Shown here: in pieces, positions 25,013 to 28,202 of the stretch | Layout of the letters: every line of letters starts with the position of its first letter | How positions within the stretch are numbered: the stretch's first letter is position 1 | UHGV virus genome: UHGV-0212541 | DNA: 39,460 bases | Reading direction: 5' to 3' (one strand) | Source: a virus | Notes under the pieces: generated by a model | What the model was told of the DNA's origin: nothing | The model's database searches: none | What the model saw: the letters and a program-made list of their open reading frames with translations, nothing else | Translations under genes and position numbers: made by a program

Positions 25013-26320
25013 TTAAAACATTCTTCTGATTTTGTTCCGCTGCTCTTTAGTAACGGTTGATTTCTTTTTGGCCCACATGTCTTCGTTGAAGGCGTATCTT
25101 GTCGCATCAATCGTATGGTTATCTTTATCCTCTAACCTTGGCTTAGGATTTCCATCACGATCTGTTTGATAGTCGATGTTCTCGAATTCCTTAGCAATAT
25201 TCGGAGTGCGTAGTGGATCAATACAAATAAAAGCCAAATCATCTAGCCACTGTTCACCGTACTCAACAGAATCAGGTCCTTTTTTCACGCCTTTTATTCC
25301 TTTCATGCCATGTTCATTAACTAATTCAGCATTACTCTTTGGCTCTGCGCTATCTGAAAATATCTCCTCATTTTGGTAACCTTTAGATTTAGCTTTGTTT
25401 GCAAATTCTCTATTGCTGATCTTCACGCCGTAAATTTCATCGATTGCATAAATACCGTTTTTCTTTTTGTCATAATGCCATCTGACGAACGCTAAAGGAT
25501 CCGTTGCATATCCATAGTCCAAACCGTTGCGGATGTTATCAAAGTTAGAGATCATTTCATCTGTAATAGAACCTTTCTTAACTTGTAGATTATCAAAAGG
25601 TACAACTCCTGACCCCACAGCTTTACCATCATATTCCCACTCAGCCCTTATTGGATTCCTTGCTCTAGTTGCCTCAACTTCTTTCAGAAATTCCTTAGAG
25701 ATGAATGGATTATCCCGATAGGTCGAGTGATGAATAAAAGTGTTGTCTGGTTGAAAAGAAGTCTCATATTTTTTATTTACCCAAGATTGTTTTCTCTTAG
25801 GTGGATTGTAGCTGTAAAAAAACTTATAAAAAAGACCATCATCTAATTCTCCACGTAAAAGGGAGTTCGTGATAGTCGTGACTTCATCTTCTGTTTTAAA
25901 TTCTGCTAATTCTTCAATCCAACCTATAGCAAATGGAAACTTGCTATCTTTTAAAGACTTGATTCGTTCTGGGTTTTGAGCACCACGAAATATCATATAA
26001 TTCCCTCTTGGAAGATAAGTAATTTTAAGTGGTGACTTATTAAACTTAAATAGGCGCGATACTCCCTGCTTCTCAATTGCCCATTTCATTTGTTCGTAAA
26101 TAGATTGCTCAAGTGTATTATCAACATAACGTATACCTACAGCATTCACTGCATATCTCATAAGTAACTGAGTAACGATATGCGCTATATCTGATGATTT
26201 TCCTGAACCCCGGCCACCTTTACAAACTATATTAAGAATGTCTTGATTTAAAGTCGCTCTCCATACTGAATGAAACTTCGGCGGAAGAAATTCAGATAGT
26301 TTTTTAGCCATCATCATCAC
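25013..26320 (-). CDS. terminase large subunit (PBSX XtmB-like)
   Basis: Walker A KGGRGSGKS; nuclease half; overlaps terS. Confidence 0.9.
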   Translation of the reverse strand: MMMMAKKLSEFLPPKFHSVWRATLNQDILNIVCKGGRGSGKSSDIAHIVTQLLMRYAVNAVGIRYVDNTLEQSIYEQMKWAIEKQGVSRLFKFNKSPLKITYLPRGNYMIFRGAQNPERIKSLKDSKFPFAIGWIEELAEFKTEDEVTTITNSLLRGELDDGLFYKFFYSYNPPKRKQSWVNKKYETSFQPDNTFIHHSTYRDNPFISKEFLKEVEATRARNPIRAEWEYDGKAVGSGVVPFDNLQVKKGSITDEMISNFDNIRNGLDYGYATDPLAFVRWHYDKKKNGIYAIDEIYGVKISNREFANKAKSKGYQNEEIFSDSAEPKSNAELVNEHGMKGIKGVKKGPDSVEYGEQWLDDLAFICIDPLRTPNIAKEFENIDYQTDRDGNPKPRLEDKDNHTIDATRYAFNEDMWAKKKSTVTKEQRNKIRRMF

Positions 26321-26759
26321 TACTTATATCATCAATGAAAGTAGGTATTTCAGAAATTTCAACTTTCTGCTTATCTACAAATGCTGCGTTTATTTTATAA
26401 TAATGCTCAAGTGCTTGGTTACGTTCTTTGAAACCTGCTGAATATTCACTCACTTCACGTTCTATGATTTCGTTTGTATAAGGATCTCTCTTAACAACTT
26501 CAAAGCGTTGTGGTTCTCCTTTTGCAATAGAAGCAGTAATAGCCAAAGCTTCTTCCATTGTTAAATGCCTCTTAGTTTGAACTTCTTTTAGCTTCTCTTG
26601 AATGTAGTCGGATACTTTTCCACCTTTTTCCACCAATTTTTCTTGTGCGTTCTTAGCGTAGTTTTCTTTATAGCCAGCTTTCAGTGCTGACTGATAAGCA
26701 TTGCCTGTGATGATGTACTCATCAGCAAAGGCTTGTTGCTTAGGATTCAACTTACTCAT
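26304..26759 (-). CDS. terminase small subunit
   Basis: MSKLNPKQQAFADEYIITGNAYQSALKAGY HTH-like N-terminus typical of TerS. Confidence 0.8.
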   Translation of the reverse strand: MSKLNPKQQAFADEYIITGNAYQSALKAGYKENYAKNAQEKLVEKGGKVSDYIQEKLKEVQTKRHLTMEEALAITASIAKGEPQRFEVVKRDPYTNEIIEREVSEYSAGFKERNQALEHYYKINAAFVDKQKVEISEIPTFIDDISSDDDG

Positions 26760-26784: not shown

Positions 26785-27009
26785 TTAATGATATTTTTTT
26801 ATATTTGTCTGTATGTTCTGCTCACTAAAATATCCATGGCCACAGTAACGAAGATTGTACTTATCAACCTCTTTCGGTGTAGCTTCTCTGGTCATTTCAA
26901 CAATGGAGTATTTCTTTTTAATCTGGACTGATTGGACAACTCTAATTGGATCATCTGCGTTTGGTTGCGGATATTTATTTGATAATGATACATACCAGTA
27001 GTTTCTCAT
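26785..27009 (-). CDS. hypothetical protein, 74 aa (start MRNYWYV)
   Basis: AGGAGG 8 nt upstream of ATG 27009; immediately 3' of a terminator. Confidence 0.5.
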   Translation of the reverse strand: MRNYWYVSLSNKYPQPNADDPIRVVQSVQIKKKYSIVEMTREATPKEVDKYNLRYCGHGYFSEQNIQTNIKKYH

Positions 27010-27029
27010 TATGCAGCCTCCTTTACGCA

Positions 27030-27057
27030 AAATAAAAAGACCACTCAAAGAGTGATC
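27030..27057 (-). terminator. intrinsic terminator on the minus strand (GATCACTC-ttt-GAGTGGTC plus TTTTTATTTT) inside the late gene cluster, just upstream of the 74-aa ORF and terS
   Basis: 8-bp stem with 1 mismatch, followed by a U-run on the minus strand. Confidence 0.6.
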
Positions 27058-27059
27058 TC

Positions 27060-27270
27060 ATATGTAATAGCAACCTACACACAGGCGGTTATCCTGTTCC
27101 TCCCTAGGGCTCGCACCACACGAGTTCATACCCCCCTCGGTTGCTTAAAGTCACTGGAGTGGAATCGCACCACTCACGTACTAGTCCTTTCTAGTTTTGT
27201 ACAAGGTCCCGATAGTGCGCCATACGCTTCCTACCTCCACCTTTGCGTCTTCTATTTCCGCCACAGTGAC
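27060..27270 (-). ncRNA. GC-rich (about 55% versus 35% background) structured non-coding island; candidate cis-regulatory RNA or sRNA ending at the 27030-27057 terminator
   Basis: no plausible ORF on either strand; internal hairpin GAGTGG-tgcgatt-CCACTC; repeated GGTGCGA; 6-bp long-range pair GCAACC...GGTTGC; palindrome CCCTAGGG. Confidence 0.4.
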
Positions 27271-27279
27271 AAATTAATA

Positions 27280-27307
27280 TTGTGAAAATAAATACTAAGC
27301 GTATAAT
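27280..27307 (+). promoter_or_regulatory. sigma70-like promoter TTGTGA-16-TATAAT driving the oppositely oriented DUF1508 gene
   Basis: -35 at 27280-27285, -10 at 27302-27307. Confidence 0.55.
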
Positions 27308-27346
27308 TTTAGTTATCAGCGAGTGGTCCGCTGAAATAAATTATAG

Positions 27347-27538
27347 GTGGTGAAAAATTTGTACTTTGTTATAAGAGAAGCAACTAATGGCCAATATTAC
27401 TTCGTTATTAAGTCCGATAACAATGAAGTAGTAGCAACTAGCGAAACATACTTGACTAAATATTCCGCTGAACAAACCATTAATTCTATAAAAAACGGAA
27501 TCACCAAAGACTCTCAAGTTATCGATATGACTAAATAA
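27347..27538 (+). CDS. DUF1508 (YegP-like) small protein, 63 aa, opposite orientation to the prophage late genes
   Basis: YFVIREATNGQYYFVIKSDNNEVVATSETYLTKYSAEQTINSIK fits the DUF1508 pattern; start GTG 27347 or TTG 27359 (GGTGGTG RBS). Confidence 0.6.
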   Translation: MVKNLYFVIREATNGQYYFVIKSDNNEVVATSETYLTKYSAEQTINSIKNGITKDSQVIDMTK

Positions 27539-27944
27539 GACGACTAACTTCATTTGCTAGGGAGTTCATTTCAGCTGCTTTTTCTACCAAAGCAGTTGAG
27601 ATACTTTCTAGCTTTTCTGATTTAACAGAATTAAATACTGGCGTCTTGATACTAATCGATACATCTTGACGAGGATCAGGACTCGTTGCTCTATTTTTTT
27701 GCACCACTGATCTGTACTTTTCTACTGAATGATACTCAATTACTTGTTCTAAATGTTTTTTGTACTCTTTACATACAGCTTCTTTTTGGGTCAATTCTAA
27801 ACGTTGTTGCTCAATAATATCAATCAACCGTTCCCGATCCATACCTTGATACTTTATTTGTTCGACTTGGTCACTAGCCTTGTTGAGCAGTTCTTTTAGT
27901 TCAGTCAAATCTAATTTGACAGTTGCTTTGATTTCTTTATCCAT
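27531..27944 (-). CDS. coiled-coil protein, first ORF of the late leader transcript (start MDKEIK)
   Basis: GGAGG RBS before ATG 27944; the ORF-track N-terminal extension is unlikely to be translated. Confidence 0.5.
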   Translation of the reverse strand: MDKEIKATVKLDLTELKELLNKASDQVEQIKYQGMDRERLIDIIEQQRLELTQKEAVCKEYKKHLEQVIEYHSVEKYRSVVQKNRATSPDPRQDVSISIKTPVFNSVKSEKLESISTALVEKAAEMNSLANEVSRLI

Positions 27945-27972
27945 TCGTTTTTCCTCCAATACATAAATTAAT

Positions 27973-28057
27973 AGACAGCAACGGATGATAGATAATAAGA
28001 ACAATTTAGAAGGAGTTAAAATTCACATCCTTATTCTTAATATTTCCGCTGCTGTCT
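27973..28057 (-). other. 13-bp long-range inverted repeat (AGACAGCAACGGA / TCCGCTGCTGTCT; G-U-containing perfect stem in the minus-strand RNA) in the late leader
   Basis: read directly; pairs perfectly only in the minus-strand transcript. Confidence 0.45.
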
Positions 28058-28146
28058 ATCGAAGCTTAATTGTGAAACAATAATAAAACGATGTTCCTTT
28101 TATTATTATTTTGTCTCAGACCTATCACTAATCTTTCGACACTACC

Positions 28147-28202
28147 ATAATATCACGTTAAAACGCTCAAAAACCCTACACTATCCCTACAAAAACCCTA
28201 CA
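28147..28202 (-). promoter_or_regulatory. candidate late promoter: 3x TGTAGGG direct repeats at exact 11-bp phase, then extended -10 TGaTATTAT; 4 nt downstream of the arpU-like stop
   Basis: plus-strand CCCTACA at 28174, 28185, 28196; minus-strand TG+TATTAT at 28147-28155; no -35. Confidence 0.55.

Follow-up and report, generated by a model that had tools for sequence, protein, structure and literature searches.

We analysed the 39,460-nucleotide (nt) virus genome UHGV-0212541, hereafter the window, and studied a GC-rich island located on its late-gene strand between the gene for the ArpU regulator and terS. Our results indicate that this island is, very probably, a conserved, tRNA-derived and modular non-coding RNA (ncRNA) cassette of Enterococcus prophages. 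It consists of two RNA modules, a linker and an intrinsic terminator (Table 1). With moderate confidence, we further propose that it is an accessory RNA cassette, an "RNA moron", which occupies a slot that follows the ArpU late promoter and its leader and precedes the first late genes, and which is released by enzymes.

The GC content of positions 27070-27268 is 53.3%, compared with 36.1% for the whole window, and none of the 3927 sliding 200-nt windows reached 53.3%. The minus strand of the island, which is the RNA strand, is G-rich (G69, C39, A58, T44). The sole mechanically called open reading frame (ORF) in the island, a 77-amino-acid (aa) frame on the plus strand (27052-27285), had no Pfam match at E<=1. 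An earlier, sequence-only reading of this DNA had described a GC-rich, structured island that lacks a credible ORF and lies between arpU and terS, and our analysis bears this out for a non-coding RNA element of the late-gene strand. Its boundaries hold in part: positions 27270-27030 belong to the element, and the remaining 27271-27307 are a divergent promoter of the plus strand. It had also listed two copies of GGTGCGA 54 nt apart and a palindrome. Both copies are found (27171-27165 and 27117-27111), the second being restricted to one version of module 2, and there is no evidence that the repeat as such is important. The palindrome CCCTAGGG is located at 27109-27102.

Read along the minus strand, the 5' half of the island runs GTCACTG, TG, GCG-GAAATAGAAGA-CGC and, after the interior, GAGTGG-TGCGATT-CCACTC, CAGTGAC and TTTA. 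The 3' half continues with AGCAACC, GAG and, after a second interior, ACAGG-ATAACCG-CCTGT, GTGTA, GGTTGCT and ATTACATAT, followed by GAGATCACTC-TTT-GAGTGGTCTT TTTATTTT. These two halves correspond to module 1, and to module 2 with the linker and terminator, respectively.

Sequence comparison tells us that module 1 derives from a class II tRNA of the tRNA-Leu type. The unconstrained minimum free energy (MFE) structure of 27270-27150 is a class II cloverleaf with the T arm stacked on the acceptor stem, and the two modules fold independently. The module shares with tRNA-Leu (RF00005) the acceptor stem GUCRCUG/CAGYGAC, a long variable-arm hairpin and a T arm with a T-loop-like 7-mer, as well as U8-G9, which directly follows the 5' strand of the acceptor in the window copy. 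Its short (3-bp) D stem with a large loop is a class II trait, and a D loop of the GGCGGAA..GGUAGACGC type is near-identical to that of genuine tRNA-Leu. The 5' 26 nt of module 1 match the acceptor and D arm of genuine tRNA-Leu. Outside Enterococcus-type loci, the pattern TGTCNCTGTGGCGGAA-N5-9-ACGC caught genuine tRNA-Leu(UAA/UAG), including all Saccharibacteria matches, and one tRNA-Ser, both of which are class II. Matches of this 5' pattern in Actinomycetota and Halorubrum lie inside protein-coding genes and were dismissed as chance.

Two tRNA-finding tools recognised relatives of the window copy. The Rfam tRNA model RF00005 scored 29.2 bits (gathering score 29) on one relative, L153, whose copy carries a 62-nt insertion. 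ARAGORN, run at an 80% threshold with introns allowed, called the largest family tRNA-Leu(UAA) with a 26-nt insertion, extending exactly from G1 to the discriminator; at this lowered threshold the program gives weak support only, since its many intron-bearing calls include much junk, with 20 spurious calls on the window copy.

The sequence-only reading had noticed the T-arm-like hairpin GAGTGG-TGCGATT-CCACTC, which is present at 27175-27157, and had missed that it is the real T arm of a cloverleaf, as well as the nature of the island as modular cargo. Its stem has 6 bp in every phage copy, compared with 5 bp in the genuine tRNA-Leu caught by the same pattern. The arms that would form the elbow carry GGG and UUCGAUU in relatives, and AUAGAAGA and UGCGAUU in the window copy. 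The ends of the module are also constant. In 75 unique copies taken from loci not found via the 5' pattern, U stands at position -1 in 56 and at position 74 in 74, and none encodes CCA. The anticodon arm has been replaced by a payload, and the payload of the window copy contains no 7-nt anticodon loop. Because this loop is missing, the T stem has six pairs, the discriminator is U and default tRNA finders fail, we conclude that module 1 is no working tRNA of the usual kind.

Furthermore, the pattern of substitutions points to selection on the RNA structure of the cassette. Across 41 distinct variants of the module 1 frame, 97% of the cells are paired. In the T stem, four of six pairs change on both sides (GAGTGG/CCACTC, GCAAGG/CCTTGC, GCAATG/CATTGC, GCCGGG/CCCGAC), and acceptor pair 4:69 is seen as A-U, G-C and G-U. 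The observed covariation score was reached by 0 of 500 shuffles, and pairing was lost when the partners were slid against each other. Within the payload family of the window, one inner pair is altered on both sides (GC to UG) and two switch between GC and GU. The D-loop and T-loop types partition perfectly over about 50 payload contexts: AAGGG-type (GGG) D loops occur with U55 and xUAGAAGA loops with G55, as expected if the elbow contact is maintained.

More than 130 prophage loci share this architecture, and they come from about 20 species of Enterococcus and a single Lacticaseibacillus. When viral contigs were scanned with the 3' motif, 57 loci emerged; the 5' motif was present as well in 46 of these, which reduced to 40 unique elements of 196-805 nt. 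The module 2 frame was detected at 112 loci, and a scan with the 5' motif in one genome per species recovered about 20 Enterococcus species and Lacticaseibacillus suibinensis. The two modules belong together: the 11-mer of module 1 lies within 900 nt upstream in 47 of 55 independently found module 2 loci, for a chance expectation of 0.0004. Their order is constant, with module 1 followed by 0-5 optional cassettes, usually the GCAACC...GGTTGC module, sometimes a UACAUA-flanked cassette, and the same terminator. In relatives, an RBS (ribosome binding site) and a variable small ORF follow 5-12 nt past this terminator.

The content of this frame is exchanged. At least 20 unrelated payload families of 18-172 nt all occupy the anticodon-arm position, and the acceptor and T arms were retained by the unconstrained MFE structure in 28 of 37 payload variants. 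The optional cassettes include true tRNA-Lys or tRNA-Ile, degenerate (Lys-like) tRNAs and others. Enterococcus phage EH-TP1 and the window agree in the 5' end, GTCGCTGTGGCGGAAAGGGTAGACGC, and at the other end in CTGTGTGTAGATTGCTAGTACATACGAGATCACTCTTCGAGTGG followed by Ts. In EH-TP1 the interior is about 600 nt long, compared with about 200 nt in the window, and includes a true tRNA-Lys(UUU). The island is unannotated in this phage. Among deposited phage genomes, EH-TP1 was the only one with the island, and the remaining matches covered the terminator alone.

Several further observations concern the content of these loci. Embedded true tRNAs with odd anticodon loops occur in other species (L072 4416-4488, L097 6505-6577, L116 5073-5145, L096 2265-2338 and 2633-2705); ARAGORN reported tRNA-Ile(AAU) with the loop UGAAUAG (G at position 33), tRNA-Ile(UAU) and one "tRNA-???". 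Otherwise unrelated payloads share recurring short motifs: in the L008/L013/L153 and L008/L034 families, AGGTCAAT appears in three contexts, and CGTCGAGGG(A/T)A is common to a 56-nt and a 172-nt payload. A type I toxin-antitoxin pair (Rfam rli28 and RatA matches) lies in or near the slot in L141 (1958-2271), and an amidase-like ORF is in the slot or close by in L106. An HNH endonuclease ORF is inserted in a broken module 1 in L027 (element offset ~95-600), and a group II intron is found nearby in L119 (1419-1711).

Module 2 is a second frame with a variable interior. Its outer stem P1 and its junctions (GAG ... GUGUA) are constant in 56 sequence variants that have at least 10 different interiors. 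The long-range GCAACC/GGTTGC pairing claimed by the sequence-only reading is real, being kept in all of these variants and changed on both sides in EH-TP1, where P1 reads GCAATC/GATTGC. About 10 different P2 hairpin sequences occur, each ending exactly 2 nt before GTAGGTTGC. The single-stranded interior of the 56 variants (27098-27138 in the window) has many spaced GG runs and GGAGG-like (Shine-Dalgarno-like) motifs. This G-rich interior could be an anti-Shine-Dalgarno mimic, a two-tier G-quadruplex or a protein site.

The linker box next to module 2 is a likely recombination or processing joint, because (A/U)UACAUA flanks an optional cassette elsewhere. The minus-strand stem and U-run predicted earlier as a terminator proved real. 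The stem (27059-27037) has 10 pairs and a 3-nt loop, its U-run extends to 27029, and the structure conforms to the features used to recognise Rho-independent terminators. It is kept in nearly all loci, with variation confined to the loop. Late transcription must pass this terminator, which was one of two options in the sequence-only reading. As that reading had stated, there is no room for a promoter between the terminator and the RBS: the gap is 5 nt and no sigma-70-like promoter fits.

Table 1. Features of the island and its surroundings, with positions in the window
Feature	Position	Strand	Description and basis
GC-rich island, element proper	27270-27027	minus	two RNA modules, linker and intrinsic terminator
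Module 1	27150..27270	minus	121-nt tRNA-like RNA derived from class II tRNA (tRNA-Leu type); fold and tRNA homology
Acceptor stem	27270-27264 with 27156-27150	minus	7 bp, GUCACUG/CAGUGAC; in MFE structure; 96.5% paired in 41 variants
D arm	27245..27261	minus	3-bp GCG/CGC, 11-nt loop GAAATAGAAGA; stem invariant in 41 variants
Payload	27203..27243	minus	irregular 41-nt hairpin, closing stem AAGGU...ACCUU, in anticodon-arm position; fold
Variable-arm-like hairpin	27180..27195	minus	ACUAG-AAAGGA-CUAGU; fold
T arm	27157..27175	minus	6-bp GAGUGG/CCACUC, 7-nt loop UGCGAUU; fold and covariation
Discriminator position and trailer	27146..27149	minus	U, then UUA; CCA not encoded; putative RNase Z site
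Module 2	27069..27145	minus	framed G-rich domain; 56 variants share P1 and junctions
Module 2 P1	27144-27139 with 27075-27070 (core)	minus	AGCAACC/GGUUGCU; core GCAACC with GGTTGC
Module 2 interior		minus	junction GAG; inner hairpin CUCGU-GUGGU-GCGAG; G-rich stretch with GGGAGGA
Module 2 P2	27097-27081	minus	ACAGG-AUAACCG-CCUGU
Module 2 junction	27080-27076	minus	GUGUA
Linker box	27060..27068	minus	AUUACAUAU; (A/U)UACAUA flanks extra optional cassette in other loci
Intrinsic terminator	27027..27059	minus	GAGAUCACUC-UUU-GAGUGGUCUU, then UUUAUUUU; consensus scan
RBS	27024-27017	minus	AAAGGAGG; 5 nt past terminator
First late small ORF	26785..27024 (including RBS)	minus	74 aa; ATG at 27009-27007, 7 nt after RBS
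terS	26304-26759	minus	Terminase_2
terL	25013-26320	minus	Terminase_3
ArpU-dependent late promoter (probable)	28147..28202	minus	TGTAGGG three times with 11-nt period, then extended -10 TGaTATTAT (28155-28147)
TGTAGGG boxes	28202-28196, 28191-28185, 28180-28174	minus	first box 4 nt after arpU stop
Conserved late leader	27960..28140	minus	about 190 nt; common to relatives
137-aa ORF	27531-27944	minus	between leader and island in the window
DUF1508 gene	27347-27538	plus	between leader and island in the window
Divergent promoter	27280-27307	plus	TTGTGA-16-TATAAT; drives DUF1508 gene; lies in the 27271-27307 part of the interval first proposed

The genomic context places the cassette in a late-operon cargo slot. 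ArpU is a 139-aa protein encoded at 28625-28206 (TIGR01637, 131 bits). Three boxes and an extended -10 follow its gene and probably mark the late promoter, judging from their arrangement. In phiFL2A, experiments identified the same layout as the ArpU-dependent late promoter (PMC3753634). The position and orientation of the cassette relative to arpU and terS are fixed: all 55 loci with a tblastn match have an ArpU homologue upstream in the same orientation, most often about 245 nt before G1. In relatives such as L008, the conserved leader is followed without a gap by the tRNA-like module, and in L008 the slot contains RNA alone. An alternative upstream context is seen in L004, L019, L023, L028, L029 and others, where a co-oriented 27-aa hydrophobic ORF, MIPLIISIFALCLNVYMIGFKNGQNKK, ends 30 nt before the tRNA-like start.

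The cassette is dispensable. Over the structural genes, phage vB_ElaS_B1578 and the window share 97.9% identity, and this phage has the same ArpU boxes, leader and terminator, with a 313-aa protein gene in place of the island. Likewise, in phage 4995_1 this leader and terminator enclose a protein gene, and the RNA island is missing. Since vB_ElaS_B1578 keeps the leader and the terminator with a protein gene, we consider the island to be accessory cargo and not the antiterminator of the late operon. The terminator is also retained in L229 (1501-1531) and L230 (1501-1542), just before the first late RBS, with RNA or protein cargo alike; it belongs to the cargo slot, whichever the cargo. The conserved leader is a candidate means for ArpU-driven transcription to pass this terminator. 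A further deposited genome, PQ554527.1 ("Acinetobacter phage D2SVT"), shares 97% identity with the window phage and with vB_ElaS_B1578 across about 18 kb, and its host label looks doubtful.

The divergent promoter upstream of the island belongs to a portable unit (27280-27345, plus strand), which includes the 5' untranslated region hairpin TCAGCGAGTGGTCCGCTGA and is near-identical in more than 20 loci, where it drives unrelated opposite-strand genes. This segment has a sub-threshold Rfam match to Ref1C (Enterococcus sRNA 1C), with 20 bits in the window and 33 bits in L034, the gathering score being 90. The conserved TTTCACAA upstream was considered as the island's own promoter and rejected, as it is the -35 (TTGTGA) of the divergent plus-strand promoter.

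For the expression of the cassette, we propose the following mechanism. Transcription of the late strand would carry the cassette in the 5' part of the late transcript. Host RNase P would cut at U|G1 (27271/27270) and RNase Z after the discriminator (27149), releasing a stable tRNA-shaped RNA that bears the payload and to which CCA would be added. The remainder, module 2 with the terminator hairpin (~27148-27027, about 120 nt), would become a separate molecule resembling a small RNA (sRNA), with an exposed G-rich (GGGAGGA) strand. Late mRNA would be made by polymerases reading through the terminator. The discrete RNA (sRNA) and the processing element, two options raised by the sequence-only reading, are viable and form the core of this explanation.

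The release by RNase P and RNase Z is suggested by the acceptor/T-arm stack with its elbow, by the U at positions -1 and 74, and by the absence of an encoded CCA. RNase Z in Lactobacillales cuts CCA-less pre-tRNAs right after the discriminator (PMC8549757), and cytidines after the discriminator (C at 74) inhibit RNase Z (PMC7479834). Judging from these signals in the sequence, it seems reasonably likely that tRNA enzymes process the cassette into discrete RNAs.

Several results weigh against this interpretation. With default settings, ARAGORN found no tRNA gene in the whole window, and RF00005 had no match to 26900-27450 at E<=10. The 6-bp T stem, the discriminator U and the T loop UGCGAUU deviate from functional tRNAs, and bacterial leucyl-tRNA synthetase needs A73. 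Folding energy was unremarkable on the RNA strand, with an MFE z-score of -1.09 (26 of 200 shuffles folded equally well), and was lower on the opposite strand (-2.85). Because these z-scores are uninformative, the strand was assigned from tRNA homology, from the orientation of the terminator and from G-U pairs, such as the eight at acceptor pair 4:69. Close relatedness of the sequences inflates the covariation counts, as does the choice of module 1 copies, which was partly guided by required pairing. In some copies, A faces C at acceptor pair 4:69, and copies broken by inserted ORFs occur in L027, L106 and L098; decay would look alike. No sigma-70 promoter of its own was found on the minus strand upstream of 27270, the nearest one being on the plus strand, and antisense targets of the island, sought inside the window, gave no match above chance. 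Finally, transcription from the late promoter, cleavage by RNase P and RNase Z, and stability of the products are steps that we infer.

The degenerate copies raise the question of whether the island is a decaying tRNA island, consisting of pseudogenised phage tRNAs and hitch-hiking junk that is kept by linkage only. True tRNAs (Lys, Ile) share the slot with degenerate Lys-like tRNAs, and the mismatched acceptor pair, the copies broken by ORFs or by the HNH gene and the failure of default tRNA finders would all fit such decay. We nevertheless regard it as unlikely. Compensatory changes keep the pairing, the D-loop and T-loop classes are matched over about 20 species and at least 20 payloads, and the payloads are well folded and G-rich in a 36% GC genome. 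Moreover, all copies have the 6-bp T stem, U74 and a payload at the anticodon position, and the sharing of these same non-tRNA features points to selection on a derived form and not to random decay. The location of the island suggests another explanation, a cis-regulatory leader in which the RNA gates read-through of its own terminator, by attenuation, as a riboswitch, or by processive antitermination of the put/EAR type. Every late transcript passes the island between the ArpU promoter and the late genes, and a strong terminator stands directly before the RBS. This explanation, too, has a low probability in our view, because the hypervariable, cassette-like interior shows at least 20 unrelated inserts among loci and has no conserved alternative pairing with the terminator, and because no riboswitch, T-box, attenuator or other cis-regulatory Rfam family was matched. 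Embedded true tRNAs would make little sense in an attenuator, and vB_ElaS_B1578 and 4995_1, one of them 98% identical in the late genes, retain the leader and the terminator with protein cargo. For the same reasons, the cis-acting antitermination suggested by the sequence-only reading is unsupported. We rejected an antiterminator in which CCACTC of the T arm pairs with GAGTGG of the terminator, as this pairing is possible in one T-arm version only.

Two explanations start from the neighbouring packaging genes, and we find both very improbable. The island adjoins terS, terL and the portal gene, and a late-expressed, multi-domain RNA at this place could be a structural or packaging-motor RNA like the phi29 packaging RNA (pRNA), or a cage-forming RNA like GOLLD and ROOL, which are likewise phage-borne, found near tRNAs and of unknown function (PMC12286853). 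The models of phi29 pRNA, GOLLD and ROOL had no match in the window (E<=10), in EH-TP1, in eight long relatives (E<=0.5), or in 18 genome loci. A size of about 200 nt and modular variability are unlike a fixed assembly component, and the presence or absence of the island between near-identical phages leaves the packaging-associated RNA of the earlier reading unsupported. At the level of DNA, the island directly upstream of the packaging genes might instead be a pac or cos site, a recombination hotspot or a protein-binding site by terS, with the RNA structure incidental. Short conserved linker boxes (UACAUA and the GCAACCGAG frame) flank the exchanged cassettes, and recombination clearly acts at this place. 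However, the compensatory G-U pairs would be A-C on the other strand, and the tRNA homology and the terminator are strand-specific. The island cannot be the packaging site, because a 98%-identical phage that has the same terminase genes lacks it.

The accessory RNA cassette that we favour resembles several known systems. It differs from class II tRNAs by its 18-172-nt payload in place of the anticodon stem-loop, its 6-bp T stem and its discriminator U, and it agrees with many Lactobacillales tRNA genes in not encoding CCA (PMC8549757). It has the same design as the engineered tRNA scaffold, in which a foreign RNA replaces the anticodon arm. To express recombinant RNA in bacteria, Ponchon and Dardel reportedly substituted an RNA of interest for the anticodon arm, so that the chimera was processed and stabilised like a tRNA. 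Unlike this scaffold, the cassette occurs naturally in phages, uses a class II frame and is located in a late-operon leader, and its processing and stability are predictions.

Furthermore, tRNA-like folds inside longer transcripts recruit RNase P and RNase Z (or RNase E) and set RNA ends (PMC1920247). Named examples are the plant mitochondrial t-elements, mitochondrial tRNA punctuation, MALAT1 mascRNA and the E. coli 3'ETS-leuZ. In 3'ETS-leuZ, the trailer between tRNA-Leu and a terminator is a functional sRNA. These examples are from organelles, eukaryotes or enterobacterial chromosomes, and none of them has a payload at the anticodon position or lies in a phage late leader. By analogy, the cassette may work like the engineered scaffold and the tRNA-like processing signals, and is a member of neither group.

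Its place also recalls other phage elements. In lambda, PR'-6S RNA-tR' with Q produces a short terminated RNA between the late promoter and the late genes, and phage morons are terminator-bounded cargo inserted between genes that are adjacent in relatives. The cassette likewise shows presence and absence between genes adjacent in relatives and is bounded by a terminator. It differs in that no Q-like antiterminator or qut site was identified, no promoter of its own was found, and the cargo is RNA and not protein. GOLLD and ROOL are structured RNAs of phages and prophages in Lactobacillales and other bacteria, often at tRNA islands and sometimes with tRNAs in a variable linker (PMC12286853, PMC5737381). 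The cassette is much smaller than these, has exchangeable modules and starts with a tRNA-derived frame, and neither of their covariance models matched it.

The sequence-only reading could place the island in no known ncRNA family, and our searches agree. Rfam 15 gave no match at the gathering score in the whole window and no credible match at E<=10 in 26900-27450. Chance-level matches to Ref1C (20 bits, other strand) and to ctRNA_pND324 (19 bits, over the terminator) were dismissed. In the relatives, Rfam returned nothing save the embedded true tRNAs and the tRNA score of L153. Neither the ARAGORN search for transfer-messenger RNA (tmRNA) nor Rfam detected a tmRNA in the window. We also searched the literature for tRNA-like RNAs in Enterococcus prophages or late operons and found no description of this element. 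RNAs that resemble tRNAs, and phage RNAs at tRNA islands such as GOLLD and ROOL (PMC12286853), are known kinds; a class II tRNA frame that bears an exchangeable payload within the leader of a late operon is a new version of these.

What the released RNAs might do is a matter for tentative proposals, and any specific effector function is doubtful at present. Phage tRNAs rescue infection from the retron, PARIS and Septu nucleases, and Septu cuts the variable loop of the class II tRNA-Tyr (PMC11555353, PMC13096335). Compared with these defence-evading phage tRNAs, some cassettes hold tRNA-Lys(UUU) or tRNA-Ile with odd anticodon loops, and the window copy contains no decodable tRNA. By analogy, we hypothesise that the tRNA-like frame may serve as a decoy for tRNA-targeting defence. 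Our preferred guess, a speculative one, is a host-directed accessory role, for example counter-defence against tRNA-targeting immunity or interference with factors that bind tRNAs or ribosomes. This guess is based on the cassette-like diversification, the variable moron neighbours, which suggest an accessory hotspot, and the tRNA-Lys(UUU) or odd tRNA-Ile in some copies. The boldest version, to which we give little credence, is a natural "tRNA scaffold" system, in which the tRNA frame and the GCAACC/GGUUGC frame display payloads that are matured by host enzymes and swapped by recombination. These payloads would be RNA-only effectors of counter-defence or host takeover, for example decoys for tRNA-targeting nucleases or Shine-Dalgarno-like sponges, and the system would parallel, at the level of RNA, the accessory-gene hotspots that encode proteins.

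If our interpretation is true, the cassette would represent a new and fairly widespread class of phage ncRNA, which is blank in Rfam 15, in ARAGORN and in deposited phage records. The conserved terminator between the late promoter and the late genes raises the question of how ArpU-type late operons pass it. The accessory (moron, counter-defence) hotspots of phages would be able to carry RNA as well as protein cargo, and the engineered tRNA scaffold would have a counterpart in nature. With its defined cleavage sites and at least 20 natural payloads, it would offer an entry to the roles of tRNA mimics in the infection of Gram-positive pathogens such as E. faecium.

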